This document shows, piece after piece, positions 5,178 to 48,270 of a stretch of DNA of 64,000 nt. The translations under genes and the position numbers were made by a program. A model generated the notes under the pieces. That model worked only from the letters and a program-made list of their open reading frames with translations, was not told where the DNA came from and did not search any database. The stretch comes from an uncultured Candidatus Saccharibacteria bacterium (lineage in GTDB: Bacteria > Patescibacteriota > Doudnabacteria > UBA920 > 2-01-FULL-46-14). The DNA lies in assembly GCA_964360335.1 (NCBI GenBank), contig CAYHVH010000001.1:23426-87425 (forward strand). The letters are read 5' to 3'. How positions within the stretch are numbered: the first letter of the stretch is position 1; every line of letters starts with the position of its first letter.

Positions 5178-6410
5178 TCAACCCCGGAACAGCTTGTAAA
5201 GTTTAAACAGCGCGTAAAATGCCCGATTCAAAACCAGATCCCGGGCGCCGACACCGTAGACTTCCTTGCCCGTCACTCCGGCCGTGACATACCGGGTTTT
5301 GAACCGGGTAATCCCAGCCCAAGGATGGTCTGGTTCGTTCGGCGGGGCGACGCCCCACAAATCATACCATTTTTTGCCGCGTTGTCTGCTTAATTTGATT
5401 GCTTCCCAAAGGACAAGGCTTGGAGCATTGGCGGTTCGCTCTTTGGCAGAAGAAGCCGCGTACAAATAAGTTCCGGAATCACCGAAAAGCATAATGACGG
5501 CGGCAGCCAGGATTTCGCCTTGATATTCGCCGACCAGAAGCTCGGCGTGGGGTGCAAGCGACCTCTCCTTTGGTCCCTCCCCACGCCTGGGGAGGGAAGA
5601 AGAAAATAAAGCTTCTACTTGCGGAGTATTTGACCCCTCCTCAACCCTCCCCTCCTGCCCGTCCGGCAGGCGGGCGTCAGGAGAGGGAGTCATGAAGATA
5701 TCACGGAATTTCATGAATCGCTCGCGCGGCCAAGATACAATCCCGTCTCGTTTGGTGGTTTCCTCCAAAAGCTTCAAGAAAATTTCAAAAGCCCCTTTGT
5801 CTTGAGTCGCTACTCGCACTTTTACTCCCCTGCGCTGGGCGAGGCGGATATTGTAGCGGGATTTTTCGTGCATATTCTCCAAGAGTTCTTCCTCGCTTCT
5901 GCTTAAATCCACCAAAATCGTGCGAGCTGGCTCCATCTGCCGAAGCAAAATCTCGGGCTTTCTGAAACCCAGACCTGCAAGCGACCTCTCCTTCAACTCC
6001 TCCCCATCGCCTGGGGAGGAAGAGACAGAAGGATGCGGCGGATTAATTCTCGCCAAAACGGATTTTTCCTGCCGGCCGATTTCTTTGATTTTTTCTATCA
6101 AGGCCTGCATACCCCCTCTCCACTCTCCCCCTAAGTTAGGGGGAGAAAAAGAGGGGGTACCGCCCAATTCATGATTCGTAATTCTTGATTCGTCGAAAAT
6201 CGGTCCCTTCGGCACTTCCAAATAAGTTCTGCCAAACGGCAGCCTTTTTATTACGACTTGCGCTAAAAGCTGGTTCTGGATATCGAAGCGATAAACTTTG
6301 TGGCCGAGAGCGGCTTGAAACTGCCCCCATTGCCAGGACTGGAGGAAAGAGGAAGGAGAAGAGTTCCTGGCTACAAATTCATTCCAATTATCTTTAGAAA
6401 GTAGATTCAT
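5178..6410 (-). CDS. FemAB-family peptidoglycan aminoacyltransferase (lipid II amino-acid transferase-like) carrying two in-frame repeat insertions
   Basis: FemAB/FemX-like N-terminus (SSFLQSWQWGQF) and C-terminal GNAT-like fold. 410 aa including inserts. Confidence 0.65.
   Translation of the reverse strand: MNLLSKDNWNEFVARNSSPSSFLQSWQWGQFQAALGHKVYRFDIQNQLLAQVVIKRLPFGRTYLEVPKGPIFDESRITNHELGGTPSFSPPNLGGEWRGGMQALIEKIKEIGRQEKSVLARINPPHPSVSSSPGDGEELKERSLAGLGFRKPEILLRQMEPARTILVDLSRSEEELLENMHEKSRYNIRLAQRRGVKVRVATQDKGAFEIFLKLLEETTKRDGIVSWPRERFMKFRDIFMTPSPDARLPDGQEGRVEEGSNTPQVEALFSSSLPRRGEGPKERSLAPHAELLVGEYQGEILAAAVIMLFGDSGTYLYAASSAKERTANAPSLVLWEAIKLSRQRGKKWYDLWGVAPPNEPDHPWAGITRFKTRYVTAGVTGKEVYGVGARDLVLNRAFYALFKLYKLFRG
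5566..5690. repeat. Family-A element, in frame in the FemAB-like gene (unit 1)
   Basis: GCGACCTCTCCTTTGGTCCCTCCCCACGCCTGGGGAGGGAAGAAG... Encodes ...SLPRRGEGPKERSLAP... Confidence 0.65.
5981..6160. repeat. Family-A element(s), in frame in the FemAB-like gene (unit 2 plus a nested palindrome)
   Basis: GCGACCTCTCCTTCAACTCCTCCCCATCGCCTGGGGAGGAAGAGACAGAAGG (encodes SPGDGEELKERSLAG) and CCCCCTCTCCACTCTCCCCCTAAGTTAGGGGGAGAAAAAGAGGGGG (encodes GTPSFSPPNLGGEWRGG). Confidence 0.65.
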
Positions 6411-6501: not shown

Positions 6502-9276
6502 TTACACGGCTTGCCGTGTCATCTCTTCCCAATTATCGCCGAACTTGGCTTCCACGACGAGGGGAACTTTGAGTTTATAAATATTCTGCATGATTTTGGT
6601 AATTTTTCCGGCATAGTCATCAACTTTCTTTTCGGCTATTTCAAACACCAGCTCATCGTGAACCTGTAAGAGCAACCGGCAATCCTCGCGAGACGTCAAA
6701 TTTTCCTCCGCCAGTTTGTTCATCGCCAGTTTGATAATATCCGCCGAAAGCGATTGAAACGGCATGTTGATGGCCGCTCGTTCAGCAGCGGCGCGAACTG
6801 GCCACTGCGAAGAATTAATCTCGGGGAGATACCGGAGTCGCCCGAGTTCGTTTTTGACGTAGCCCGAGCGGCGCGTTTCCCCAACTATTTCCTCAAGGTA
6901 GTGAGTCAAGCTGTGATAGGTTTCGAAATATTTATCGATAAAATCTTGGGCTTCGCCTTGGGACACTCCTTTGATCCGGCTCTTGAGACCATAAGCGGAA
7001 AGGCCGTAGAGTACCCCGAAATTTATGGTCTTGGCATCTCGGCGCATTTCCGGGGTAATTTCGACCTCTCCTCCAGCTCCTCCCCTCGCCAGGGGAGAAG
7101 GGAGGGATTGAAAAATCTCGCGAGCTGTTGCTTCGTGAATGTCGCCGCCTTCGTGAAAAACTTTAATCATTTTCTCGTCGCCCGACAAATGGGCGGCCAG
7201 ACGAAGCTCAATCTGGGAGTAGTCCACGGACAGCAATTTATACCCTGTTTCGGCAACGAACGCCCCGCGGATTTTTCGACCAAACTCGGTGCGGATCGGA
7301 ATGTTCTGGAGATTCGGTTCGCTGGAGGACAATCGCCCGGTGGCAGTAACTGTCTGGTTAAAACTTGTGTGTAGCCGCCGCGTTTGAGGACTAACCAAAT
7401 CCGGCAAGGCATCTAGATAAGTATTTTTAAGTTTCGTTAATTCCCGCCATTCCGATATCAAATCAATAATCGGATGCAATCCTTTGAGCTTCTCGAGTTC
7501 CGTGGCCGCCGTGGACAGGCCGGTTTTGCCTTTTTTGAGCTCCTCGGTGGGAATCCCCAATTTCTCAAATAATATCTGTTTTAGCTGGATCGGGCTGCCG
7601 ATGTTAAATCTCTCGCCCGAAAGCCGGTAAATCTTCTGTTCGAGTTTCGAAATCTCCGCCGTGGCCTCGGCCGACAACTCCTTCAAGCACGACGGATTGA
7701 CCTTTACTCCCCAGCGTTCCATTTCCGCCAAAACTCTCACCAGCGGCATTTCGATCTCATAAAAAATTTTCTCTAAATCTTTACTTCTTAGCTCTTTTTC
7801 CAGTTTTTGTTTTAGCCGGAAAGTGTAGTCCACATCCTCGCAACAGTAAGCCGCGACCTCTCGGACCGGCACTTCGGCCATGCTAATCTCTTTTTTGCCT
7901 TCGCCAATCAAACTTTTAATCGGGGTTTTCCGGAAGCCAAACTCGGTAAAACTTAGGGTGTCCAAATCGAAATTCCGCGCCCCGGGGTTTAAAAGATAGG
8001 CGGCAATCATCGTGTCAAAAAACTCTCCTCCCAAAATCACTCCGGCCTTTTGCAAAATCAAATAATCATACTTGAGATTATGGCCGATTTTCAGAACTTC
8101 CGGATTCTGCAAAATTTCCGTGAGGGCCGGGGAAATCATCGCCGCCGGCAGGTAAAAGGCCCGGTTTTCTTGCCACGCCAACCCGAGGCCGAGAAGCTCA
8201 GCCTGCATCGGGTGAACCGAGGTCGTTTCGGTATCAATAGCGATTTGTTTCTGCCTCTCAAGCTCAGTAATGATGCTTTGGAATTTTTTCGGCGTATCAA
8301 GGAGCTGATAGTCAAATTCCTCCTCGCCCCCTCTGCTCCCTCGAGCTCTACTTAGGGCAGGCTCATGAGGGGAGTGGGGGATGTCAGTCTTTGGCAGTTT
8401 ATCCAAAAGTGAACGGAACTCCAGCTCCTGAAAAAGTTTAAAAACTTTCTGTTCATCATAAGCCAGAAGCCGGGCCTGGGTTAAATCCAGTTTCACCGGG
8501 AGGTTTTTGACGATTGTTGCCAATTTTTTGGAAATTTCCGCATCCGCCCGGTGTTCCAGAAGCAGTCGAGCGACGCGCGGCTTGAGCGCCGAGTGGTCTT
8601 TGCCGACTAAATATTTATAAATTCCTTCCAAGGTCTTAAATTTTTGCAGGAGCTCGGTCGCGGTTTTTTCCCCGATGCCTTTGACCCCGGGAATGTTATC
8701 CGAAGGATCACCGCGCAGGGCTTTAAAATCTAGAAGTTCCTCGGGTCTGAGGCCATATCGCTCCCGAACCGCCCCCACGTCATAAAGTTTGGTTTCGGTC
8801 AAGCCTTGCTTAGGAGCATAGACTTTCACCCGTTCGTCTACTAATTGCAGGGTGTCCAAATCCCCGGTTAAAATCACAGTATCCAAATCTTCCTGCTTCC
8901 GGGCTTTTTCGGCCAGAGTGCCAATCAAATCATCAGCTTCATAACTTTCCAGTTCATAGACTGGAAGATTAAAAGCTCTGACCAATTCTTTGACGCGGGG
9001 AATTTGCTCATAAAGTTCGGCGGGGGCTTTAATTCTTGTTGCCTTATAAGGCTCATAAATTTTTTCCCGGAAAGTTGGCGCCGGAAAGTCAAACGTCACT
9101 GCCACGTACTCGGGCCGCAGTTCTTTGAGGGCTTTCAAAAACAACAGGGCAAAACCGTAAACGCCGTTTACTGGCTCGCCCTTTTTGGTGGACAGGTGAG
9201 GAATCGCGTGAAAGCCGCGGTGGACCAAAGCATTGCCGTCTACCAATAATAAAACTGGTTTATCTTTGCTGGACAT
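6502..9276 (-). CDS. polA: DNA polymerase I
   Basis: 924 aa. 5'-3' exonuclease, 3'-5' exonuclease-like and polymerase domains (motif RRDAKTINFGVLYG, and the motif-C region SQIELRLAAHLSGDE). Two in-frame repeat insertions. Confidence 0.95.
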   Translation of the reverse strand: MSSKDKPVLLLVDGNALVHRGFHAIPHLSTKKGEPVNGVYGFALLFLKALKELRPEYVAVTFDFPAPTFREKIYEPYKATRIKAPAELYEQIPRVKELVRAFNLPVYELESYEADDLIGTLAEKARKQEDLDTVILTGDLDTLQLVDERVKVYAPKQGLTETKLYDVGAVRERYGLRPEELLDFKALRGDPSDNIPGVKGIGEKTATELLQKFKTLEGIYKYLVGKDHSALKPRVARLLLEHRADAEISKKLATIVKNLPVKLDLTQARLLAYDEQKVFKLFQELEFRSLLDKLPKTDIPHSPHEPALSRARGSRGGEEEFDYQLLDTPKKFQSIITELERQKQIAIDTETTSVHPMQAELLGLGLAWQENRAFYLPAAMISPALTEILQNPEVLKIGHNLKYDYLILQKAGVILGGEFFDTMIAAYLLNPGARNFDLDTLSFTEFGFRKTPIKSLIGEGKKEISMAEVPVREVAAYCCEDVDYTFRLKQKLEKELRSKDLEKIFYEIEMPLVRVLAEMERWGVKVNPSCLKELSAEATAEISKLEQKIYRLSGERFNIGSPIQLKQILFEKLGIPTEELKKGKTGLSTAATELEKLKGLHPIIDLISEWRELTKLKNTYLDALPDLVSPQTRRLHTSFNQTVTATGRLSSSEPNLQNIPIRTEFGRKIRGAFVAETGYKLLSVDYSQIELRLAAHLSGDEKMIKVFHEGGDIHEATAREIFQSLPSPLARGGAGGEVEITPEMRRDAKTINFGVLYGLSAYGLKSRIKGVSQGEAQDFIDKYFETYHSLTHYLEEIVGETRRSGYVKNELGRLRYLPEINSSQWPVRAAAERAAINMPFQSLSADIIKLAMNKLAEENLTSREDCRLLLQVHDELVFEIAEKKVDDYAGKITKIMQNIYKLKVPLVVEAKFGDNWEEMTRQAV
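7061..7106. repeat. Family-A element in frame in the polA fingers region
   Basis: TCGACCTCTCCTCCAGCTCCTCCCCTCGCCAGGGGAGAAGGGAGGG. Encodes SLPSPLARGGAGGEVE immediately upstream of the RRxxKxxNFG O-helix. Confidence 0.65.
8318..8385. repeat. Degenerate family-A-like palindromic insert in the polA interdomain linker
   Basis: CCCCCTCTGCTCCCTCGAGC...GAGGGGAGTGGGGG. Encodes HSPHEPALSRARGSRGGEEE. Confidence 0.4.
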
Positions 9277-9379: not shown

Positions 9380-11050
9380 CTATTCCTCCGTCACCCGCCA
9401 GACTTCAGGGAGATCGGTAATTCCCTCCAAGGCCTTCAAGATCCCGTCCTGCTGCATAGTCAGCATCCCGGATGCGACCGCCGCTTTTTTGATTTCCAGA
9501 GTCGAGGCCTGTTGAAAAATCAGGCTTTCGATTTTTTCGTCCACGGCAAAGACCTCAAAGGCCCCGATGCGGCCCCGGTAGCCCAAATCATGGCACTCCG
9601 GACAGCCTCTGCTATGATAAAAAATTAGGTGCTCTGGTACGGTTACCGCCGCCTGGGGAGGAATTCGGGAAAGGGCAAGTTTAACCTGCTGCAGTTCCTC
9701 ACTACCGGGCCGGTAGGGCTCCTTGCAGTGCGGACAAATTTTCCGCAACAAGCGCTGGGCAATCAGGGCATTCAGAGCGGGAGCTAAGGTTACCGGCTTT
9801 ACTCCCAAATCCAAGAGCCGGGGAATGGCCCCAGCCGCGTCATTGGTATGCAGGGTGGAGAGCACGACATGGCCGGTCAGGGCGGCTTGGCTCGCGGTTT
9901 CGGCCGTTTCGTAATCGCGGATTTCTCCAACCATGACAATATCAGGATCCTGCCGGAGAATCGACCGCAGACCACTGGCAAAATCTACGCCGCTCGTGTG
10001 GTCAATCGGCGTCTGAACGATACCCTCCAACTGGTACTCCACCGGATCCTCCAGGGTAATAATTTTCACTCCGGGTTTGTTGAGGTGATTTAAAAAGGAA
10101 TATAAGGTCGTGGTTTTCCCCGAACCAGTCGGCCCGGTCGTCAAAGTCATGCCGTTGGGTTTTTTTAGTTCATGATTCACCACCTTCAGAGCCTGACCGT
10201 GCAACCCCAGTTTTTCGATGTCCAAGCCCACCTCCTGCATCCCCAAAATTCTCATCACTACAGACTCGCCGTGCGCCGAGGGCAACACCGAAACCCGAAT
10301 TTCCAAATTTCGCTCCGGCAACTTCACGGTAAATCTGCCGTCTTGGGCGACCGCCGTGACGTTAAGCTTCAGATTCGACAAAAGTTTGATCCGGGAAAGC
10401 AAAGAGTGTTGCAGACCGAGTGGAAAATCCAAAATTTCCGCCAATACCCCGTCCACCCGAAACCGGACCTTGAGTTGAGTTTTTTCCGGCTCGAGATGGA
10501 CATCCGAGGCCCGCATGATGATAGCCGCGCCAAGCATCAAGCCCACAAGCTCACTCGCAGAAATCGAGAGCAGGGATTCCCCCAAAGTCGGCAGGGCCTT
10601 GAATTTCTCCAGGACTTCCCGGCCGAGGGTTACCGCGACCTCGTGTTTGAGCGACAAAAAGGCGGGCAGAATTTTCTTGTACTGTTGCAGAGCGGCCGCG
10701 AGGGCCGTGCGCGCAACCAAATAAATCTGAACTTGGAATTTCCGCTTGGCCAATTGGGCGAGCAGAAGCTTGAGGCTCGGGTTTTGCGGTTCGGTAATTG
10801 CAACCTTCAGGAGCAAGCCGTCTTTGAAGAATGGCACGGCCGCGGCGGCAACGGCTTGTTCATACGGCACCAAATCCAAAGCCTCCTCGTCAATTGGTAG
10901 GCCCATGAGGTCAAAATATGGAAGAGAAAGAGCGGCGGCACGCCGTTGCGCTTCCTGCTCCTCGAACTTCCGATTGAGATCAGTGAAAACCCGCTGTACT
11001 CCCGCCCCGCCGTCCGGGGCCGGGACGTGTTTGCCTACTCCCGGAGCCAT
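9380..11050 (-). CDS. Type II secretion / type IV pilus assembly ATPase (GspE/PilB family)
   Basis: 556 aa. Walker A GPTGSGKTTT, GspE N-terminal domain, and a C-terminal CxxC...CxxC zinc motif (CPHC...CPEC). Confidence 0.85.
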   Translation of the reverse strand: MAPGVGKHVPAPDGGAGVQRVFTDLNRKFEEQEAQRRAAALSLPYFDLMGLPIDEEALDLVPYEQAVAAAAVPFFKDGLLLKVAITEPQNPSLKLLLAQLAKRKFQVQIYLVARTALAAALQQYKKILPAFLSLKHEVAVTLGREVLEKFKALPTLGESLLSISASELVGLMLGAAIIMRASDVHLEPEKTQLKVRFRVDGVLAEILDFPLGLQHSLLSRIKLLSNLKLNVTAVAQDGRFTVKLPERNLEIRVSVLPSAHGESVVMRILGMQEVGLDIEKLGLHGQALKVVNHELKKPNGMTLTTGPTGSGKTTTLYSFLNHLNKPGVKIITLEDPVEYQLEGIVQTPIDHTSGVDFASGLRSILRQDPDIVMVGEIRDYETAETASQAALTGHVVLSTLHTNDAAGAIPRLLDLGVKPVTLAPALNALIAQRLLRKICPHCKEPYRPGSEELQQVKLALSRIPPQAAVTVPEHLIFYHSRGCPECHDLGYRGRIGAFEVFAVDEKIESLIFQQASTLEIKKAAVASGMLTMQQDGILKALEGITDLPEVWRVTEE

Positions 11051-14181: not shown

Positions 14182-15663
14182 ATGAAAATTTCAGTTATCT
14201 CTAAACCTTTAGAAAAACTCTCTGCCGAGCTCTTGGTGACTTTTGCCGTCGAGGACAAACTCCTGCCTGAAGAAAAACTGGCGGACCGCTTCTTGGCTGG
14301 CCGGGTGGCGAAGCTTCGCCAGTCCAAAGATTTTCACGGCGAGGCCAACCAAACTCGTTTAATTTTTGCTACGGGGTCAACCCCGCGCATCCTCTTGGTC
14401 GGCCTCGGTAAACAAAAGGTCTTGACTCTCGAAACCATCCGGGAAGCCGCGGCTGCCGCCGGGAGTGAGCTCAAACGCCTACCGGTGAAGCACGCGGCCT
14501 TTCTTCTCCCGAGCTTGCCTAGCCTCTCCCCCCAGACTCTGGCCCAAGCGGTGACGGAAACCGTTCTCCTCGCTAACTACGAATTTCCTTATTACAAGCG
14601 GCCTGGCAAGGACCGCGCCAAGCTCGAGAATCTGGAACTAGTCACTGCTCCCAAAGATGTCGCTCGCGTCAAGGCCGGAAGTATCACTGGCCAAATTCTG
14701 GCAGAAGCGATAATGGCCGTGCGCGATTTGGGCAACCACCCCAGCAATGTTGCCACTCCCACTCATCTCGCGGAGCATGCTAAGCGAATCGCCAAGGGTA
14801 ACAAAAACCTCAAGGTAAAAATTTTGCACCGGCCAGAAATCAAAAAAGAAAATATGGGAGCGCTCCTGGCTGTTTCGCAAGGCTCGGACGAGGAGCCGAA
14901 GTTTATCATTTTAGAGTATCACGGCCGCGGCGACGGCCCGAGAGTAGTCCTCGTCGGCAAGGGCATCACCTTTGACAGCGGTGGAATTTCTCTCAAGCCA
15001 GGGGAAAAAATGGAAGAGATGAAATATGACATGGCTGGGGCGGCCACCGTGATGGGGGTCATAAAAGCCGCCTGCGAACTCGGACTCCCTCTTAACCTGG
15101 TGGGGCTCATTCCGGCCACCGAAAACCTGCCCTCTGGTAAAGCCAGCCGGCCAGGAGATATTGTCAAAAGTCGCTCGGGCAAGACCATTGAAATCATCAG
15201 TACGGATGCGGAGGGTCGGCTGGTGCTCTCAGATGCTCTGGACTATGCCAAAAAATACAAACCTGATTTGGTGATTGACTTTGCGACTTTGACGGGTGCC
15301 ATTGTGGTAGCCCTGGGCGATGATTTGATAGGGGCGTTTACCAACCGGGAGCGGTTTGTCCCCCAGCTCAAAGCGGCGGCCGAGGCGACCGGGGAGCCGC
15401 TATGGCCCATGCCGCTTTATCGAGGATACGAAGAATTTATCAAAAGCGACTTTGCCGATATTCGCAATCTTGGCAGCACAACTAAGTACGGCGATGCCAT
15501 CAACGCCGCGCTGTTCCTGCAAAACTTCGTGGACTATCCGTGGATTCACCTGGACATTGCCGGGGTCGCCTGGACGACGCGCGAAAAACCCTACCGGCCG
15601 AAAGGTGCCACCGGCACTGGCTTGCGCCTCGCGATTGAATTTCTGAAAAATTTTAGGAAATAA
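14182..15663 (+). CDS. pepA: Leucyl aminopeptidase (M17 family)
   Basis: 493 aa. M17 catalytic motifs (VGKGITFDSGGISLKP, NTDAEGRL). Confidence 0.9.
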   Translation: MKISVISKPLEKLSAELLVTFAVEDKLLPEEKLADRFLAGRVAKLRQSKDFHGEANQTRLIFATGSTPRILLVGLGKQKVLTLETIREAAAAAGSELKRLPVKHAAFLLPSLPSLSPQTLAQAVTETVLLANYEFPYYKRPGKDRAKLENLELVTAPKDVARVKAGSITGQILAEAIMAVRDLGNHPSNVATPTHLAEHAKRIAKGNKNLKVKILHRPEIKKENMGALLAVSQGSDEEPKFIILEYHGRGDGPRVVLVGKGITFDSGGISLKPGEKMEEMKYDMAGAATVMGVIKAACELGLPLNLVGLIPATENLPSGKASRPGDIVKSRSGKTIEIISTDAEGRLVLSDALDYAKKYKPDLVIDFATLTGAIVVALGDDLIGAFTNRERFVPQLKAAAEATGEPLWPMPLYRGYEEFIKSDFADIRNLGSTTKYGDAINAALFLQNFVDYPWIHLDIAGVAWTTREKPYRPKGATGTGLRLAIEFLKNFRK

Positions 15664-15698
15664 CGGCCAAATCAAACTAATCTCCAAATTTCCTTTCG

Positions 15699-15726
15699 TA
15701 AAATACCCGCCATGGCGGGTATTTTA
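15699..15726 (+). terminator. Perfect palindrome TACCCGCCATGGCGGGTA flanked by A/T runs; a bidirectional intrinsic terminator after pepA
   Basis: AAAATACCCGCCATGGCGGGTATTTTAC. Confidence 0.6.
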
Positions 15727-15802
15727 CAACATAAGTCCATATTGTCTACGTTTTTATGTAATTACATAATGTTGTAGACAAGCGAATTTAGCAAAAAGTA
15801 AA

Positions 15803-15838
15803 AAAGGAGACAGACTACAACGCGGTCTGTCAGCGCTT
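15803..15838 (-). repeat. 36-bp hairpin repeat copy 1 (AAAAAGGAGACAGACTACAACGCGGTCTGTCAGCGCT); terminator of the minus-strand RibA-like gene
   Basis: Identical copy at 17683-17717. On the minus strand it reads GACAGACCGCGTTGTAGTCTGTC then TCCTTTTT. Confidence 0.7.
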
Positions 15839-15846
15839 CTTTGGGG

Positions 15847-16731
15847 CTACCCCGGCCAATCAGAGTAATCCCAGCCATCTGCAAGGGGAAGGTGTATGTT
15901 GTGTCCGTGGAGAGATTTTGTCGAAAGCTCAAGTCTGTTAAAGTCATTAACTTCTGCCTGAAGGGGCACCCATTGTACTGCAAATCCTTCTTGCTTGAGG
16001 CGGTTGATTTTCCGAGGGTTATTCGTGGCGGCAATCAGACCGATTTTTGTGATATCGAAGTGTTTGAGGATTACCATCTGATCTTCCAGCTCGTCCCACT
16101 CCGGACGGCTGGAAATTCTGACAAACGGCTCCCACCAGCGGTCTATCTTGGCCGGGTCGGGGTCAAGGCCTTTTCGAATGGCGACTATTTCCGCCATTGT
16201 ATCAATCAGCGCGTGGTTCCTCGGCCCCAGTCCTTTTCCAACATGATGCAGAGCGAGAATAATCATCCCGGGGTGACCTTCTCCCCAGCTGTTGGAAACC
16301 CGCTGCTTTGCCATCTCGAACTGATCACCGCAATCACACGTTACCGCCCCTTCAACAATGCCATTAAGGCACATCGATTGGAGACGAACGACTACTGCCT
16401 CGGTTTGGAGGCTGCTGTCATTCCCCAGCCAAAGCACCCGATATTCCCGCTCTGGATGATAACAATAACCAGCGATTTCCGGTGGCTGGCTGTCCCTTTT
16501 CGCAACGTCTGACCCTCCCCAAAAACGGAAATGGGCCTTATTGAACAAGACCGCCCTTTCCTCACGACCCCCCAAGCGGCCGAGCGACCACCATTTCCGA
16601 TGACTTTCTGATCGTCGCAACCGCAACCACTCGTGATAGGGCCCAATCATCTCGAAGCCTTGCTCTTGGTTGGTCACAATACCCTCTAGCTTACCCCAAA
16701 AATCCTGACTGCCCCCCTTATTGTCACTCAT
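15847..16731 (-). CDS. GTP cyclohydrolase II (RibA)-family protein with an N-terminal extension
   Basis: 294 aa. VRLQSMCLNG...CDCGDQFE matches the RibA zinc site (HSECLTG...CDCGFQ). GMIILALHHVGKGLG matches GILLYHRQEGRNIG. AATNNPRKINRLKQEGF matches LTNNPKKVEILTEAG. Confidence 0.6.
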   Translation of the reverse strand: MSDNKGGSQDFWGKLEGIVTNQEQGFEMIGPYHEWLRLRRSESHRKWWSLGRLGGREERAVLFNKAHFRFWGGSDVAKRDSQPPEIAGYCYHPEREYRVLWLGNDSSLQTEAVVVRLQSMCLNGIVEGAVTCDCGDQFEMAKQRVSNSWGEGHPGMIILALHHVGKGLGPRNHALIDTMAEIVAIRKGLDPDPAKIDRWWEPFVRISSRPEWDELEDQMVILKHFDITKIGLIAATNNPRKINRLKQEGFAVQWVPLQAEVNDFNRLELSTKSLHGHNIHLPLADGWDYSDWPG

Positions 16732-16829
16732 TGGGTGTCCTCCTTAATGATTTCGAACATTCGATTCTAGCTGAAACTTACAAACTAGTCAATATTAACC
16801 GACTTCTCAATCTTTTAAACATCAAGTGT

Positions 16830-16885
16830 TGACTTATTTTAGCCAAAAATCTATACTATAATTGTTGTCGGATATTACCGACAAT
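16830..16885 (+). promoter_or_regulatory. Sigma-70-like promoter (TTGACT-N17-TATACT) followed by a 20-bp palindromic operator TTGTCGGATATTACCGACAA overlapping the TrmB start; related half-site at ~16772-16790
   Basis: Read directly from the sequence. The second site CTAGTCAATATTAACCGACT shares the ATATTA(A)CCGAC core. Confidence 0.5.
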
Positions 16886-17653
16886 ATAACGGAAAGCTCC
16901 TACATGCCCCTTGAAATAGATTTGAAACAATTTGGTTTTGACGAGAAAAAAGCCAGGATTTACCTGGCAGTCTTAGAGCTGGGTGAGGCAAAAGCAGCCG
17001 AGGTTGCCAAAAAGTCCGGGATAGAAAGACCAACGTGTTATGACATTTTAAATAAACTGGTCCAAGATGGACTTATTAGCTTCTTCGATAAAAGAGGAGT
17101 CAAGCATTTCGTGGCCGAGGACCCAGAAAAAATCCAAGTCCGGCTCGCAGAAAAAGAAAGGGCTCTTAATCAATTATTGCCGGAATTAAAATCGGTTTAT
17201 AATAGCCTAAAAACAAAACCCAAAATCAAATTCTTTGAAGGCCTTGCGGGAATTAAAACAATCCTGGAAGACACGCTTACTCCCCACGATAAACAGCTCT
17301 TGGGCATTTTATCAATGCGGGATCTCTATGAAATTCCGGGGAAAGAATTTATGGACAACTATGTTAAGAGGAGAATTGAAGCAAAAGTTAAACTCCGGGT
17401 TATTCGGTCAAGGATTAAAGAGGTTGGGGAGACTTGGCCTACTAATCCAAAAGAATACCGAGAATTGCGCTACGCTCCGGAAAAATTATCCTTCCCCGTA
17501 ACAATCTACATTTATGATAATAAGGTTGGAATAATCGGCACCAAAAAAGAAAACTTCGGCATGCTCATTGAGTCAGAGGAATTTTTTGAAACCTTCAAGA
17601 ATCTATTCGAAGTTTTGTGGCTCGTATCAAAAGCTGGGCCGACAAAAGATTAA
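16862..17653 (+). CDS. TrmB-family transcriptional regulator (winged-HTH)
   Basis: N-terminal TrmB HTH (GFDEKKARIYLAVLELGEAKAAEVAKKSGIERPTCYDILNKL). The real start may be the internal Met (MPLEID). AT-rich gene. Confidence 0.7.
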   Translation: MLSDITDNITESSYMPLEIDLKQFGFDEKKARIYLAVLELGEAKAAEVAKKSGIERPTCYDILNKLVQDGLISFFDKRGVKHFVAEDPEKIQVRLAEKERALNQLLPELKSVYNSLKTKPKIKFFEGLAGIKTILEDTLTPHDKQLLGILSMRDLYEIPGKEFMDNYVKRRIEAKVKLRVIRSRIKEVGETWPTNPKEYRELRYAPEKLSFPVTIYIYDNKVGIIGTKKENFGMLIESEEFFETFKNLFEVLWLVSKAGPTKD

Positions 17654-17682
17654 ATTTTCTGGACTAGGAAAAGGGGATAAAA

Positions 17683-17717
17683 AGGAGACAGACTACAACG
17701 CGGTCTGTCAGCGCTAA
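17683..17717 (-). repeat. 36-bp hairpin repeat copy 2; terminator of the minus-strand OMP-like gene
   Basis: Identical to 15803-15838. On the minus strand the hairpin is followed by TCCTTTTTAT. Confidence 0.7.
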
Positions 17718-18295
17718 AAACGAACAGTGGTGATGACGTAGGTCCGGAAGAAACGCGGCTCGCCTTGGTTGCGGAAATGGTAAGTCCCAGTTACCCAAAG
17801 GGTAACAGGACCTCGGTTTACGAGCCGAAAGCTGAGTCGCGAGCCACCGCCGTAGGAATCACGCCCACGCTTGTGAAGGTTTTCCGTCTCCACCCCAATC
17901 TTCCATCTGTCGCTTAACCGATAGTCAAATATGACGACTTCGGAAAAACTCCTGCGACTGGAAACGGGATACAACTCAAGGTAGAGATTGGCGCGTTTGC
18001 CGAAATCCCGGTTGAAACGGAAATTGAGCTGCCACTGGTGTCCCTTGGTGCTCCACTGCCGCTGGACGAGTGTCTCGAGCCACCAGTTATTGCGCTTGTA
18101 TCCCAGTCCGCCGAAGAGGTTGATGTTGTCTGGCTGCGCCTGCCGTACATTGCCAATCATCCACCCTGCAAGAAACCAGTTCTCGCCCAGCTTTTTGGTG
18201 ATATGCACTGGCGTCCGCAACTGAACAACATGATCCTGGGCCAAGAGGGGAGAGCCAAAAAGAAGAGCGAGTATCAGCAGCGTTGCTTTGCCCAT
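17714..18295 (-). CDS. Secreted beta-barrel-like protein (OmpW/OMP-beta-barrel-like), 193 aa
   Basis: Signal peptide MGKATLLILALLFGSPLLAQ, alternating amphipathic beta-strand pattern, and a C-terminal aromatic residue (..TTVRF). Confidence 0.4.
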   Translation of the reverse strand: MGKATLLILALLFGSPLLAQDHVVQLRTPVHITKKLGENWFLAGWMIGNVRQAQPDNINLFGGLGYKRNNWWLETLVQRQWSTKGHQWQLNFRFNRDFGKRANLYLELYPVSSRRSFSEVVIFDYRLSDRWKIGVETENLHKRGRDSYGGGSRLSFRLVNRGPVTLWVTGTYHFRNQGEPRFFRTYVITTVRF

Positions 18296-18395
18296 TATTC
18301 CTCCTTGACTTAACCTTTGACAGATTAAGGGGGGAGCATATATTATCTATATGGAGTGGTCAATACCACCACGAGGTGATAATTAACACCACAAA

Positions 18396-19148
18396 ATGTA
18401 TCAAGAAACGTTTGAGAGCTTAGGTTTAAGCCCCAATGAAGCGAAAATCTACGAAGCCCTGGTGGAAAAAGGGGAGTCCTCGGTAAGCGGGGTGGCGGTT
18501 GCTGCAGGCGTGCACCGCCGCAATGCCTACGATGCCATTCGGCGCCTCATTGATAAGGGCCTGTGCTTTGAAATCTTTTCTTCTGGAGAAAATCGATACA
18601 ATGCGGTCGATCCGGATAAACTCACTGAACTTGTGGCCGAGAGGCAGCAAAAATTAGAAAGTATTCTTCCGGAGCTAAAAAAGAAGTTTACCAAACGCAT
18701 TGCCCCCGAGGAAGCCTACATTTACCGGGGGTACGAGGGCCAAAAAAATATCTGGCGCGATTTGCTGCGGGTCGGGGGCGAGAGCTACGTGGTGGGGGCA
18801 AAAGGCGGATGGTTTGAGCCGAACTTGCAGGCAAGCCGTATCGAATTTTTCAAAGAAGCCAACCGAAAAAAAATCAAATTCTTTCAGCTTTTCGACCATG
18901 AAATAAAAATTCAATTTCCGCGGTTCGTCAAAGACTATCCCGGGACGCTTAAATCTCGGTATTTGCCCAAGGAATACTCCACTAATTCGCTGATTCATGT
19001 CTTTGGGGACTACTTCATTACCTATACGGGCTTGGAACTTATGAGGCTAAGTGAAAAAACAGTATTTTTTGTGATCAAAAGCCGCGACCTCGCGGAAAGC
19101 TACCGGACCTGGTTTTGGTACATGTGGGAACAATCTTCGGAAAAGTAG
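18396..19148 (+). CDS. TrmB-family transcriptional regulator (second paralog)
   Basis: N-terminal HTH (LGLSPNEAKIYEALVEKGESSVSGVAVAAGVHRRNAYDAIRRLIDKGL). Upstream TTGACA-N16-TATATT and palindromes GTGGTCAATACCAC / GGTGATAATTAACACC. Confidence 0.7.
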   Translation: MYQETFESLGLSPNEAKIYEALVEKGESSVSGVAVAAGVHRRNAYDAIRRLIDKGLCFEIFSSGENRYNAVDPDKLTELVAERQQKLESILPELKKKFTKRIAPEEAYIYRGYEGQKNIWRDLLRVGGESYVVGAKGGWFEPNLQASRIEFFKEANRKKIKFFQLFDHEIKIQFPRFVKDYPGTLKSRYLPKEYSTNSLIHVFGDYFITYTGLELMRLSEKTVFFVIKSRDLAESYRTWFWYMWEQSSEK

Positions 19149-19222
19149 CCCTTCGACCCAGCCTTCGCTAAAGCTTCGGCGGGCAGGCAAGCCTGGGGGT
19201 AATATGCTAAAATGAAACCGCG

Positions 19223-20251
19223 ATGATTAACAAAACCTCCAAACCAAAAAGCCGGGTGGTGACGGCCAAAGAGGAGGTCGCGGACCGCGAGCTGGATTTA
19301 ACGCTGCGGCCGAAAACGCTCGAAGAATACATCGGCCAGAAAAAAATCAAAGAACACCTGGCGATTTTTTTGGGGGCGGCGAAAAAACGCAAGGAGCCGA
19401 TGGAACACGTTCTGGTCTACGGCTCCCCGGGCTTGGGCAAAACCACGCTCGCCCACGTGCTGGCGAAAGAAATGGGAGTGGCCATCAAGGTCACTTCAGG
19501 GCCAGCCATCGAACGAGCCGGGGATTTGGCCAGCCTGCTAACCAATCTCCAGGATCATGACGTTCTGTTTATCGACGAAGTCCACCGCTTGCCCCGGGTG
19601 GTCGAAGAAATTCTCTATCCGGCCATGGAAGACTTTCGGTTTGACATTATCTTGGGCAAGGGGCCCGGGGCGCGCTCGGTCAGGCTAGAGCTGCCGCGCT
19701 TCACCATCATCGGGGCGACGACCCGCATCGGCCTGATTTCTGCCCCCCTGCGCGACCGGTTCGGCGTGACTTTGAAACTCGATTACTACGAACCGCAGGA
19801 AATCGAACAAATTATCGCCCGGTCGGCCAAAATTTTGGCCATTAAAATTGCGGAGGGCGCGATTCGGGAGATCGGCCACCGCGCCCGCTTTACGCCCCGC
19901 ATCGCCAACCGGCTCTTGCGTCGCGTCCGAGATTTTGCCCAAATGCGCGGCGACGGAACGATTACTGAAGATTTGGCCAACACTGCTCTGGAACTTTTAG
20001 AGGTGGACGCTTTGGGTTTGGATCGCAACGACCGACAATTTCTCCTGGCGCTGATTGAAAAGTTTCACGGCGGGCCGGTCGGCTTGGGCTCCCTGGCGGC
20101 CGCTACCAGTGAAGAAGAGGATACCATTGCCGATGTCTACGAGCCATATCTGCTAAGATTGGGGATGCTGTCCCGCACTGCCAAAGGGCGAATGGCCACC
20201 CCGAAAGCCTACAATCACCTCGGCCGGAAACCGGAGCGTTCCCTACTATGA
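19223..20251 (+). CDS. ruvB: Holliday junction branch migration ATPase RuvB
   Basis: 342 aa. AAA+ motifs: Walker [10 protein letters not shown] and Walker B FIDEVHRL. Confidence 0.95.
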
Positions 20252-38786: not shown

Positions 38787-38862
38787 TGGTGGGCCAGGAT
38801 GGATTCGAACCATCGACCCCGGCTTTATAAGAGCCGTGCTCTAACCGCTGAGCTACTGGCCC
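38787..38862 (-). tRNA. tRNA-Ile with anticodon UAU (CCA encoded)
   Basis: GGGCCAGTAGCTCAGCGGTTAGAGCACGGCTCTTATAAAGCCGGGGTCGATGGTTCGAATCCATCCTGGCCCACCA. Clean cloverleaf. Anticodon loop is CTTATAA. Overall similarity to tRNA-Ile. Confidence 0.75.
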
Positions 38863-46212: not shown

Positions 46213-48270
46213 ATGGCTGACCTTGTGAAACTCAAAGAACTCGCCAGGCTCGTTCGTTACTATATTCTGGTCTCGACCACGGCCGCGGGGTCCGGGCACC
46301 CAACATCTTCGCTGTCTGGCGTGGAACTGATGACGGCATTGATGTTTGGCGGCTATTTTCGCTTTGACTTGAATCGTCTGGGATACGCAAACAATGACCG
46401 GCTGATTTTCTCCAAAGGCCATGCCTCGCCCCTCTTCTATGCGCTGTGGGCAGCGGCTGGCGCGCTGACGGAAAAAGAGCTTTTGACTTTGCGCAAATTT
46501 GGCAGCCCTTTGGAGGGGCATCCTACCCCGGCATTTCCCTATACCGAAGCGGCGACAGGCTCTTTGGGACAAGGGTTGTCAATTGGCGTGGGCATGGCCC
46601 TTAATGCCAAGCTTGACCGGCTTCCCTATCGCACTTATGTGCTTTTGGGGGACAGTGAAATGGCCGAGGGCTCGCAATGGGAGGCGATTCAGCTCGCCGC
46701 GTACTATAAACTTGATAATTTGGTCGGCGTTCTCGATGTCAATCGTTTGGGTCAACGAGGGCAGACGATTTACGGGCATGATATTAAAGCTTATCAGAAA
46801 CGCATCGCGGCGTTCGGGTGGAAGACTATAGTCGTGAATGGGCATAATTTGAATGAGATTTTGAAAGCGTACAAACAGGCGACCCCCTCTTCATCTCCCC
46901 CTATCCCGTTTGACGGGACAGGGGGAGAAAAGAGAGGGGGTGGAAGGCCGGTGATGATCATTGCCAAAACCATTAAAGGTAAAGGAGTTTCATTTATCGA
47001 AAACAAAGAAGGCTGGCATGGGAAGGCGCTTTCCCCGGAGGATTTGAGGAAGGCACTACGAGAATTGGGGAAAGTCGACAAGAAGATGCGAGGAGAGATG
47101 GCAAAGCCGGAGAGAATTAGTAGACCGGAGACAGTAGATAGTAGATCGGAAAGCAAAGAAAAAATTAATTACAAAATCGGAGAAGAGGCGGCAACAAGGA
47201 AGGCTTACGGTAACGCCCTAGTCAGGATTTATCCGAAGTTTCCGAATATCGTAGTCCTCGACGCCGAGGTTTCCAATTCAACTTACGCGGAGATATTCAA
47301 GGAAAAATATCCGGACCGGTTTTTGGAGATGTTTGTGGCGGAGCAGAATATGGTGGGTGCGGCTCTTGGTCTTTCGCGGCGCGGCAAGATCCCGTTTGTT
47401 TCGACCTTTGCCGCGTTCCTGACGCGCGCTTTTGACCAAATCCGAATGAGCCAGTATTCGGCCGCCAACATCAAGTTTGTGGGCTCGCACGCCGGGGTGT
47501 CCATCGGCGAGGACGGGCCGTCGCAGATGGGCCTCGAGGATTTGGCAATGTTTCGCAGTATTTTAGGAAGCGTGGTTTTGTATCCTTCGGATGCGGTTTC
47601 AACCGATAAGCTTGTGGAAGCGGCAGCTAAGCACAAAGGCATTGTCTATATCAGAACAACGCGAATGGAAACCCCGGTGCTTTATTCCCCGGGGCAGGAG
47701 TTCAAAATCGGCGGGAGTAAAGTTTTGCGCCATAGCCGGAAAGACGTGGCGACAGTGCTGGCGGCCGGGATAACATTGCATGAAGCGTTGGCCGCTTATG
47801 AAGAACTCAAGAAGCAAGGGGTTTTGATTCGGGTGATTGACTTGTACAGCATCAAACCGATTGATAAAAAGACATTGACGCAGGCTGCCAAAGAAACGGG
47901 AGCGATAATCACGGTCGAGGACCATTATCCCGAGGGCGGGATTGGGGAAGCGATTAGAAGCGCTCTTTCTGACCTCCCTCCCCAAAGCATGGGGAGGGAT
48001 AAAGGGAGAGGTTTTCCGCCAGCCCGCCCCGCTTCGCTTGGCGAGGCCGGGGAGGCGGATCCGCCTTGGGCAGAGAAACTCCCTGGTAAAACCGACCTCT
48101 CTCCTTCTCTCCCCATCACCTGGGGAGAGGGTAGGATTATCTCTTTAGCGGTGCGCAAAATGCCGCGAAGCGGCAAACCGCAGGAGCTTTTGGATTATGA
48201 AGAGATATCGCGCGATGCTATTATTAAGGAAGTAAAGAGAATTGTTTCTAAATCGTCACCTCGAATTTAA
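46213..48270 (+). CDS. tkt: Transketolase (full length) carrying 2-3 in-frame repeat insertions
   Basis: ThDP-binding motifs (GHPTPAF..., LLGDSEMAEGSQWEA), pyrimidine-binding and C-terminal domains. 685 aa. Confidence 0.9.
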   Translation: MADLVKLKELARLVRYYILVSTTAAGSGHPTSSLSGVELMTALMFGGYFRFDLNRLGYANNDRLIFSKGHASPLFYALWAAAGALTEKELLTLRKFGSPLEGHPTPAFPYTEAATGSLGQGLSIGVGMALNAKLDRLPYRTYVLLGDSEMAEGSQWEAIQLAAYYKLDNLVGVLDVNRLGQRGQTIYGHDIKAYQKRIAAFGWKTIVVNGHNLNEILKAYKQATPSSSPPIPFDGTGGEKRGGGRPVMIIAKTIKGKGVSFIENKEGWHGKALSPEDLRKALRELGKVDKKMRGEMAKPERISRPETVDSRSESKEKINYKIGEEAATRKAYGNALVRIYPKFPNIVVLDAEVSNSTYAEIFKEKYPDRFLEMFVAEQNMVGAALGLSRRGKIPFVSTFAAFLTRAFDQIRMSQYSAANIKFVGSHAGVSIGEDGPSQMGLEDLAMFRSILGSVVLYPSDAVSTDKLVEAAAKHKGIVYIRTTRMETPVLYSPGQEFKIGGSKVLRHSRKDVATVLAAGITLHEALAAYEELKKQGVLIRVIDLYSIKPIDKKTLTQAAKETGAIITVEDHYPEGGIGEAIRSALSDLPPQSMGRDKGRGFPPARPASLGEAGEADPPWAEKLPGKTDLSPSLPITWGEGRIISLAVRKMPRSGKPQELLDYEEISRDAIIKEVKRIVSKSSPRI
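46880..46945. repeat. Family-A-type nested palindrome in frame in tkt
   Basis: CGACCCCCTCTTCATCTCCCCCTATCCCGTTTGACGGGACAGGGGGAGAAAAGAGAGGGGGTGG. Encodes TPSSSPPIPFDGTGGEKRGGG. Confidence 0.65.
47970..48140. repeat. Composite family-A insertion (three palindromic units, ~171 bp) in frame in the tkt C-terminal domain
   Basis: TGACCTCCCTCCCCAAAGCATGGGGAGGGATAAAGGGAGAGG ... GGCGGATCCGCC ... CCGACCTCTCTCCTTCTCTCCCCATCACCTGGGGAGAGGG. Encodes a 57-aa loop. Confidence 0.7.

Follow-up and report, generated by a model that had tools for sequence, protein, structure and literature searches.

The pepA-ruvB interval

The DNA analysed here, a window of 64 kb from an uncultured groundwater bacterium, contains at about 8 kb from dnaA an islet of 3.5 kb lodged between two housekeeping genes: on the left pepA (14182-15663, plus strand), which encodes an M17 leucyl aminopeptidase (PF00883 at 404 bits, and PF02789), and on the right ruvB (19223-20251, plus strand; RuvB_N, AAA_lid_4 and RuvB_C). 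Two minus-strand genes lie in the islet, each divergent from a gene of the TrmB family; this arrangement, reported by the initial annotation, is confirmed by the presence of PF01978 in both plus-strand partners (16904-17653 and 18396-19148).

The first pair associates a RibA-like gene (15847-16731, minus strand, 294 aa) and TrmB1. The RibA-like protein has the GTP-cyclohydrolase-II fold and is not a RibA equivalog: it matches PF00925 (GTP_cyclohydro2) at 37.3 bits, where the cut-off is 23.3, and it stays far below the cut-offs of the NCBIfam RibA equivalog models (56.2 bits vs 148, and 53.9 vs 205.85). The Cys triad of its Zn site, C121, C132 and C134, aligns with the CxxxxxxxxxxCDC of the RibA structures 4rl4, 4i14 and 2bz0, and the protein carries an N-terminal extension of 100 aa. 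It is nearly an orphan, with one close homologue found (62% identity); it is also 30% identical to the product of a GCHII-like gene that adjoins a TrmB1 homologue in L095. TrmB1 (16904-17653, plus strand, 249 aa, with an alternative TTG start at 16862) is a TrmB/TrmBL2-like winged-helix regulator (PF01978 at 57.0 bits, gathering cut-off 25.6) and belongs to a large family: 259 matches at E<1e-20, with 49-65% identity among the 120 matches listed, the few named sources being CPR lineages. The profile of this family matches TrmB (3qph) and TrmBL2 (5bpd) in the PDB, reaching residues 11-155 only of TrmBL2. Between the two genes, a promoter scan delimits a divergent control region (16764-16884) with a predicted RibA-side promoter on the minus strand (-35 at 16792-16787, -10 at 16769-16764), a predicted TrmB1 promoter on the plus strand (16829-16857) and a putative palindromic operator, TTGTCGGATATTACCGACAA (16865-16884). 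The -35/-10 boxes and the putative operator are conserved in the relative L010, and the distant TrmB1 homologues of L094 and L095 display a similar promoter/operator.

The second pair associates an OMP-like gene (17714-18295, minus strand, 193 aa) and TrmB2 (18396-19148, plus strand, 250 aa; PF01978 at 54.7 bits, gathering cut-off 25.6). The OMP-like protein, beta-rich, has a signal peptide and ends in -RF, thus with a C-terminal Phe. It matches nothing in Pfam, NCBIfam or the PDB, even when a 43-sequence profile is used for Pfam and the PDB; its family is small and uncharacterised (72 cluster representatives among 1.84 billion), and its AF2 model is all-beta but unreliable (pLDDT 39). The control region of this pair (18296-18395) comprises a predicted TrmB2 promoter (18317-18346, plus strand), a predicted OMP-side promoter (minus strand, -35 at 18363-18358) and two GGTG-N8/9-CACC boxes (18356-18392). 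In both TrmBs, no Pfam match extends past residue ~88 and the C-terminal sugar-binding effector domain of TrmB/TrmBL1 was not found; against the NCBIfam equivalog models for TrmB, TrmBL1 and TrmBL2 they score 16-40 bits, for cut-offs of 500-650. The islet would be made up of two self-contained regulatory modules, each pairing a winged-helix regulator of the TrmB/TrmBL2 type with a cargo gene transcribed divergently from it; both genes of a module use one short control region with predicted back-to-back sigma-70-like promoters and predicted palindromic operators.

The islet had been described as compositionally mixed, with an AT-rich TrmB gene and a GC-richer OMP-like gene. Compared with 55 ORFs of the window, TrmB1 is indeed AT-rich (GC 40.4%, z = -2.7; GC3 43%, z = -2.2); it is the only outlier, the three other islet genes, OMP-like included, being ordinary. 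The composition of the RibA-like gene is native-like and that of TrmB1 is not, an unexpected difference if both had recently been imported as one unit. A shared mobile origin was also proposed. As a classic mobile island, this does not hold: no integrase, transposase, tyrosine or serine recombinase and no flanking tRNA was found within ~15 kb of the islet, and the islet matches no plasmid or phage DNA. Gene lists and Pfam, which covered 0.5-48 kb of the window except for some short ORFs at 28-31 kb, reveal housekeeping genes only and no integron integrase. A classical genomic island was considered and rejected: direct repeats are present, the adjacent tRNA and the integrase are absent, and TrmB1 alone is atypical.

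A repeated hairpin at the end of the cargo genes

The 37-mer AAAAAGGAGACAGACTACAACGCGGTCTGTCAGCGCT occurs exactly twice in the window, at 15801-15837 (DR1) and 17679-17715 (DR2), as a direct repeat on the plus strand, the copies being 1878 bp apart. The initial annotation had rightly seen an exact repeat, although it gave it 36 nt and coordinates 2-4 nt off; it also suggested a search for further copies, which finds only these two in 64 kb, none being added when up to 3 mismatches are allowed. No dinucleotide shuffle out of 100 yielded two matches. The same junctions recur in several separate assemblies of the Hainich well H51: contigs L001/L003 and L002 contain DR1 as well as DR2, and L004-L006 also contain the DR2 junction. 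This rules out an assembly artefact as the source of the arrangement.

Read on the minus strand, the repeat is AGCGCTGACAGACCGCGTTGTAGTCTGTCTCCTTTTT: a stem of 7 bp, four of them G-C, a loop of 9 nt and a U-tract, with a stability of -10.5 kcal/mol (z = -3.0). The stem is followed by UCCUUUUU, in which a UCC spacer precedes the U-tract; in the relatives L009 and L012, an unbroken U7-8 directly follows the stem. A simple consensus terminator scan did not call the window hairpins because it limits the loop to 8 nt. As previously noticed, each copy sits 3' of a minus-strand gene: DR1 (61.5 bits with model R1) begins 9 nt past the TAG stop of the RibA-like gene, and DR2, which lies 26 nt from the stop codon of TrmB1, overlaps the TAG that ends the OMP-like gene. 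The former reading of both copies as terminators of these genes agrees with our own, as far as their anatomy indicates. Across genomes, the hairpin lies 0-23 nt from the stop codon, on the coding strand, at all six sites.

Identical terminators had further been taken as the sign of a recent duplication. A tandem duplication of one TrmB plus cargo module would explain two exact 37-nt copies at 1878 bp and the common architecture of both modules. However, TrmB1 and TrmB2 are 23% identical, the RibA-like and OMP-like cargoes are unrelated, the identity breaks off at the edges of the 37-mer with no similarity beyond, and the TrmB2 module stands alone in L009 and L012. These observations refute a recent module duplication, which we regard as highly improbable.

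Two other palindromes are found near DR1. One (15700-15726, AAAATACCCGCCATGGCGGGTATTTTA) appears, on reading, to be pepA's own terminator, and differs from the 37-mer. The other is an AT-rich inverted repeat of 40 bp, TTGTCTAC-N24-GTAGACAA with the inner core TTATGTAATTACATAA (15742-15781), present in one copy only in the window. In L010, where the RibA-like gene, the hairpin and this palindrome are carried by a 1.2-kb contig, a block of ~100 nt comprising the palindrome and the hairpin is ~94% identical to that of the window; the adjoining coding sequence is 62-65% identical at the protein level.

Conservation of the hairpin and of its position

The comparison with relatives, another suggestion of the initial annotation, supports its claim that the islet is accessory and interrupts housekeeping genes. 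The order TsaE-VanW-PepA is kept in L009, L012 and the outgroup L018, and the content of the interval changes each time. In L018, a single 78-aa ORF separates pepA from ruvB. In L009, pepA is followed by the hairpin, an OMP-like gene (61% identity), a 48-aa ORF, TrmB2 and ruvB; in L012, by the hairpin, an unrelated 134-aa gene, TrmB2 and ruvB. L014, whose contig stops before ruvB, has after pepA an antitoxin-like ORF, an ORF read by eye as PIN-like and a putative reverse transcriptase. TrmB2 is 79% conserved in L009 and L012, and its control region is conserved there through the RBS and ATG of the cargo, which differs beyond. The TrmB2 slot, from regulator, promoter and RBS to hairpin, is common to three of the four relatives with the cargo swapped. 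The window additionally has a RibA-like/TrmB1 unit whose limits coincide exactly with DR1 and DR2; this unit is missing from L009 and L012 and does not adjoin pepA in L014. The compared lineages are roughly equidistant. The unit may have been gained in the lineage of the window or lost elsewhere.

The hairpin of the relatives is identical to that of the window at 30-36 of the 37 positions. Among five distinct versions (six sites in five genomes), 27 of 37 positions are invariant, the consensus being AGCGCTGACAGACCGC-N6-GTCTGTY followed by a T-run; the edges are sharp and the flanks unrelated on both sides. By contrast with this conservation, identity falls to 33-51% at the four-fold degenerate sites of the adjacent genes, which are saturated. 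A hairpin maintained at an orthologous position despite saturated synonymous sites is a conserved element, not a recent scar, so that identical copies do not indicate recency, as had been thought. A single match was found in 185,579 species genomes, in the distant "Saccharibacteria" MAG L011, whose Mur ligase is just 31% identical to that of the window; there again the element closes a gene whose divergent neighbour encodes a TrmB-like regulator with a putative operator, TTGTCG..CGACAA.

This distribution bears on the possibility that the hairpin is a selfish mini-repeat of the REP/MITE type that inserted independently 3' of several genes and also acts as terminator. A short, palindromic, extragenic element with sharp boundaries and unrelated flanks has the expected aspect, and a different family of dispersed palindromic repeats is indeed present in this genome. 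Against this, only two copies exist in 64 kb, both confined to the TrmB modules; none was found outside TrmB modules in 847 kb of compared loci, TrmB-like modules accompany the element in every case, and the element occupies orthologous positions in the window, L009 and L012, in agreement with descent and not with repeated insertion. We find this origin quite unlikely.

Conservation at the sequence level is not expected of ordinary terminators. No covariation was detected in the stem among the five variants, so structure alone does not explain the constraint; this implies some sequence-specific partner or process acting on the hairpin. One candidate would be a bound factor, recognising either an RNA motif of the 3'-UTR or a DNA site, for example to control the stability or termination of the cargo mRNA, or as an auxiliary site for a TrmB-like protein. 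The 5' AGCGCT and the first three bases of the loop (CGC) are invariant in all five variants, and the AGCGCU could pair with the CGC of the loop in an H-type pseudoknot. Moreover the element goes with three different TrmB paralogues, and the block conserved in L010 extends to the 40-bp palindrome, in which the outer half-sites (TTGTC/GACAA) are similar to the putative TrmB1 operator. On the other hand, the lack of covariation gives no structural support, Rfam holds no match to the hairpin, and three types of TrmB with different operators are not compatible with a module-specific regulator explaining one common hairpin. We consider a bound factor rather unlikely as the reason of the conservation.

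The process could also be recombination. The hairpin would then be a site comparable to attC, dif or lox, with 7-bp arms around an asymmetric 9-bp spacer, where TrmB/cargo cassettes would be integrated, excised and exchanged by a recombinase whose gene lies elsewhere, a cassette system previously undescribed in CPR. The window would hold two stacked cassettes, the direct copies representing attL and attR of an integrated RibA-like/TrmB1 cassette of 1.84 kb. The limits of the presence/absence unit, precisely at the two direct copies, the exchange of cargo between a conserved 5' region and a conserved hairpin, the conservation in sequence without covariation and the occurrence in a genome as distant as L011 all point in this direction. 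However, no tyrosine/serine recombinase or transposase lies within ~15 kb, no empty-site or circle junction appears among eight H51 contigs, every copy has the T-run and the gene-end position of terminators, the attC R'/R'' core motifs are lacking, and the cassettes bring their own promoters and regulators. We hold each part of this reading, i.e. the site, the cassette system and the stacked cassettes, to be unlikely.

Altogether, the data are probably best accounted for by a recombination hot spot in which TrmB-regulated cargo modules have, at their 3' edge, a terminator under sequence constraint. The cargo transcript would end at the 37-nt hairpin and its U-tract, most likely an intrinsic terminator insulating the neighbours: judging from its anatomy, DR1 would halt RibA-like transcription before its antisense entry into pepA, and DR2 would halt OMP-like transcription before its antisense entry into TrmB1. 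The comparison of related CPR genomes shows that the hairpin lies at the 3' edge of TrmB-regulated cargo and is not a duplication scar. The pepA-ruvB gap would be a hot spot where the TrmB2 slot is kept and the cargo exchanged, and the RibA-like/TrmB1 pair an additional unit of 1878 bp, whose presence/absence limits are the two hairpin copies, most likely added by recombination, homology-driven or site-specific, at the shared hairpin.

CPR bacteria (Patescibacteria) have tiny genomes, and their regulation and gain of accessory genes are little known. The islet would offer a concrete hot spot near the replication-origin region, in which small self-regulated modules are exchanged between lineages, together with a large and well-conserved TrmBL2-like regulator family in which the promoter/operator is conserved and the divergent partners vary. 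The unusually sequence-constrained, terminator-like hairpin that travels with the modules could be used as a marker when searching for such modules. If it is a recombination site, it would reveal a new cassette mechanism; if merely a terminator, the islet is tidy but ordinary.

Comparison with known systems

Like Rho-independent terminators, the element is a hairpin then a U-tract at 23 nt or less from the stop, between convergent or antisense-prone genes. Unlike them, one hairpin sequence closes unrelated genes, and it is the sequence as well as the structure that hardly varies, even between genomes with saturated synonymous sites. The islet TrmBs share with TrmB, TrmBL1 and TrmBL2 of Thermococcales the N-terminal PF01978 winged helix, a size of ~250 aa like that of TrmBL2, and predicted palindromic operators overlapping the promoters; they differ in being bacterial (CPR) and in the sugar-binding C-terminal domain, which was not detected.

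REP/BIME palindromes are also short, just 3' of genes, with sharp edges, and can act as terminator or stabiliser; unlike them, the present element has two copies in 64 kb, found only at TrmB modules, and a RAYT-type transposase was not seen. Integron cassettes, including the chromosomal arrays of near-identical attC, similarly line up units in tandem, with variable cargo and, at the end of each, a conserved repeat able to form a hairpin, and the islet cargo is likewise exchanged at a fixed slot. At the opposite, no integrase was found, the element has neither the R''/L''...L'/R' architecture nor a GTTRRRY core, it measures 37 nt whereas attC sites span 57-141 nt, its hairpin has a terminator-like T-run, and the islet units are not promoterless, having their own regulator and promoters. 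Finally, although the islet is very small (3.5 kb) and without integrase or tRNA, it resembles chromosomal integration hot spots: the core flanks, TsaE-VanW-PepA and RuvB, are conserved, the genes of the interval are lineage-specific, and one relative (L014) carries there a toxin-antitoxin-like pair and a putative reverse transcriptase.

Two TrmB modules closed by the same hairpin

The interval between pepA and ruvB holds two modules, each made of a minus-strand cargo gene and a divergent plus-strand TrmB regulator: the RibA-like gene (15847-16731(-)) with TrmB1 (16904-17653(+)), and the OMP-like gene (17714-18295(-)) with TrmB2 (18396-19148(+)). A string search of the window places two exact copies of a 37-mer on the plus strand, one at 15801-15837 and one at 17679-17715; two matches were reproduced in none of 100 shuffles, and no third copy occurs in the window even at three mismatches. 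The exact two-copy repeat of the initial annotation is thus real, with a length of 37 nt instead of 36 and coordinates moved by 2-4 nt. In minus-strand reading it is AGCGCTGACAGACCGCGTTGTAGTCTGTCTCCTTTTT, where a 7-bp stem (GACAGAC/GTCTGTC) closes a loop of 9 nt and a U-tract follows (-10.5 kcal/mol, z = -3.0). Read this way, copy 1 starts 9 nt past the TAG of the RibA-like ORF and copy 2 overlaps the TAG of the OMP-like ORF. Both copies are present on contigs from Hainich groundwater well H51 (L001/L003 and L002), and the copy 2 junction is found again on L004-L006; the recurrence of these junctions in several separate H51 assemblies excludes an assembly artefact. From its form and position, we propose that the hairpin terminates the cargo transcripts and so would insulate pepA and TrmB1 against antisense read-through.

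Identical terminators had been taken as the mark of a recent duplication or of a shared mobile origin of the two modules. The recent duplication does not hold: TrmB1 and TrmB2 are only 23% identical, the cargo genes are unrelated, and the identity between the modules breaks off sharply where the 37-mer ends. The identical terminators reflect a conserved module-boundary element, not the trace of a fresh event. The mixed composition also proposed for the islet is limited, in the GC/GC3 profile, to TrmB1, the sole outlier (GC 40.4%, z = -2.7; GC3 43%); the three other genes of the islet have an ordinary composition.

The pepA-ruvB interval is a variable hot spot

The two cargo genes, both near-orphans, and PepA served as queries to obtain relatives, and the window proteins were placed in them by tblastn. 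On the C-terminal domain of PepA, the window and the loci L009, L012 and L014 are roughly equidistant (74-81% identity), and L018 stands as an outgroup (58-60%). The gap after pepA contains a single 78-aa ORF in the outgroup; the hairpin, an unrelated 134-aa gene and TrmB2 (79%) in L012; the hairpin, an OMP-like gene (61%), a 48-aa ORF and TrmB2 (79%) in L009; and the RibA-like/TrmB1 unit, the OMP-like gene and TrmB2 in the window. The 134-aa gene of L012 is indeed foreign to the OMP-like family (hhalign probability 0.2%). In L014 (924-2548) the gap starts with an antitoxin-like ORF, a second ORF judged PIN-like by eye and, on the opposite strand, a putative reverse transcriptase gene with a YADD motif, and the contig stops before ruvB; from this gene content, the gap would attract other accessory elements too. 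Such differing contents make the pepA-ruvB interval a variable hot spot, and the reading of this region as an accessory islet is borne out. In this uncultured CPR-type bacterium the islet lies about 8 kb from dnaA-dnaN-recF.

The TrmB2 module is common to three lineages (window, L009 and L012). Its control region is kept in all three through the RBS and ATG of the cargo, and the cargo differs past the ATG, so that the module works like a slot in which both the 5' end and the 3' hairpin are conserved. In L009 the first place in this slot is taken by a hydrophobic ORF of 48 aa (9771-9917) that has its own start, and the OMP-like gene comes after it; the window's OMP-like gene begins directly at the conserved RBS and ATG.

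The RibA-like/TrmB1 unit is an extra segment of 1878 bp whose limits are exactly the two hairpin copies; an empty site would read OMP-like gene, hairpin, ACTTTTTGCTAAAT. This extra module was probably added by recombination at the common hairpin. No recombinase, transposase or tRNA was found within about 15 kb of the islet, and module 1 had no BLASTN match in plasmid and phage DNA.

Conservation of the hairpin element

The element is known from six sites in five genomes (the two window copies, L009, L010, L011 and L012). They represent five distinct 37-nt versions, with 27 invariant positions that include the whole of AGCGCTGACAGACCGC in the motif AGCGCTGACAGACCGC-N6-GTCTGT. The edges are sharp, with unrelated flanks on both sides. 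In relatives, 30-36 of the 37 positions are identical to the window copy, and the four-fold degenerate sites of adjacent genes are only 33-51% identical, i.e. saturated. The stem displays no covariation, with a single G-C to G-U change; for want of variation, the covariation/pseudoknot test neither supports nor contradicts the structure. The absence of covariation in a conserved stem points to a constraint on the sequence. This constraint could possibly reflect a recombination site, which would agree with the limits of the extra segment, or a bound RNA or DNA motif; a REP-like element is possible as well. Some of these three readings could hold together with the explanation by a terminator and module boundary.

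A scan of 185,579 species genomes, the window's own genome not being among them, returned one match, L011. This MAG, labelled 'Saccharibacteria', is distant from the window (Mur ligase 31% identical, GC 41%); even here the element stands at the end of a gene (312 aa) whose divergent neighbour is a TrmB-like regulator, with TTGTCG..CGACA as operator. Covariance modelling detected neither diverged nor further copies in 847 kb (window and fetched loci). The scan of viral contigs for the element gave a single match, GCGCTGACAGACCGCGACATAGTCTGTCT at 2059-2095 of L092 (IMGVR_UViG_3300046804_001651). This look-alike lacks both a T-run and a TrmB neighbour, reaches only 33 bits with the hairpin covariance model R1, and is probably coincidental.

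In L010, a block of about 100 nt is conserved at about 94% identity, despite RibA-like proteins only 62-65% identical. Beyond a 14-nt linker, it spans a 40-bp AT-rich palindrome that has hairpin copy 1 on one side and the pepA terminator on the other (window 15742-15781; L010 1143-1182). The window has no second copy of this palindrome, TTGTCTAC-N24-GTAGACAA with the perfect inner core TTATGTAATTACATAA, and its conservation in L010 is about 95%. The outer half-sites are similar to TTGTC..GACAA, the TrmB1 operator, and both strands carry promoter-like hexamers that overlap the palindrome. It had no match in viral contigs, and no Rfam family was found for the hairpin or the palindrome, either at gathering thresholds over the whole window or at permissive E-values over the islet. 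TrmB1 homologues were screened for a longer contig of the L010 organism (SRR22387843), and none of them matches the N-terminus encoded in L010.

TrmB regulators and their operators

Both plus-strand genes of the islet encode proteins of about 250 aa with the PF01978 TrmB winged helix, and the TrmB1-family profile matches TrmB (3qph) and TrmBL2 (5bpd) of P. furiosus. The family is large (259 matches at E<1e-20, the 120 matches listed being 49-65% identical to TrmB1); its members are mostly unnamed, and the few source names given are CPR lineages. A promoter, TTGACTnATnnTAGCCAAnA...TATAAT, is conserved in the family, with an operator TTGTnG...CGACAA just downstream of the -10 box (window 16829-16884; L011 ~2505-2560; L094 ~5940-6000; L095 ~5935-6000, the last two being loci of distant TrmB1 homologues). 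Promoter and operator are kept across distant CPR lineages where the proteins are only 33-62% identical. This conservation suggests, at the level of sequence, a widely shared autoregulatory design; through such palindromic operators, the TrmB regulators would repress divergent promoter pairs. The hairpin and the TrmB1-family operators in L094 and L095 have the 8-mer TTGTAGTC in common, a post hoc observation that was given no weight.

The divergent partners differ within the family, and those in L095 and L096 are two examples among others. In L095 (2621-6738) the gene pointing away from the TrmB1 homologue (62%) opens an apparent operon of GTP-cyclohydrolase-II-like (GCHII-like), aldehyde dehydrogenase and asparagine-synthase-like (AsnS-like) genes; the AsnS-like gene of L096, also divergent from a TrmB1 homologue, lies at the position matching this operon. 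Such an arrangement hints at an uncharacterised nucleotide-derived pathway under TrmB1-type control. A literature search for TrmB in CPR/Patescibacteria returned nothing. PADLOC gave only generic winged-helix matches and no known defence family, so the islet is not a known defence system.

Cargo genes

The RibA-like ORF has a GTP-cyclohydrolase-II fold (PF00925, 37.3 bits), and its zinc-binding Cys triad aligns with solved RibA structures. Its score is far under the RibA equivalog cut-offs, it carries an N-terminal extension of 100 aa, and a single close homologue was found (62% identity); identity to the GCHII-like protein of L095 is 30%. The product of the OMP-like ORF, 193 aa long, has a signal peptide and a C-terminal -RF and is without match in Pfam, NCBIfam or PDB even with a 43-sequence profile; among 1.84 billion cluster representatives, its family accounts for 72. 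For both cargo proteins, AlphaFold modelling from alignments of 2 sequences gave models too poor to use (pLDDT 39 and 31).

Other features and comparison with known systems

A second palindromic repeat family of about 45 nt, unrelated to the hairpin, is present in the window: CGACCTCTCC...CTCCCCAyGCCTGGGGAGGGA, in at least 14 copies and both orientations (1211-1255, 1301-1337, 1934-2010, 2688-2785, 5556-5665, 5979-6025, 7059-7097, 36170-36214, 47977-48115 and 51600-51687). Several copies lie in frame within housekeeping ORFs (Mur ligase, FemAB, PolA, RuvC and others), where they encode, for instance, SSSPSDGEELKERLL or SSLPRRGEGIRERSN; in L009, PolA lacks the 10-aa insert at the position of the repeat. 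ARAGORN also predicts at 38787-38862 a tRNA-Ile with anticodon TAT (UAU), uncommon in bacteria. By its insertion in protein genes, the second repeat family resembles Rickettsia palindromic elements; a search of a paper collection gave none that links elements of this type with CPR.

The islet itself adds a further example to known categories, namely small variable islets, regulators of the TrmB type and repeats that look like terminators. Its one curious feature is the sequence-invariant hairpin travelling with TrmB modules across distant CPR lineages.
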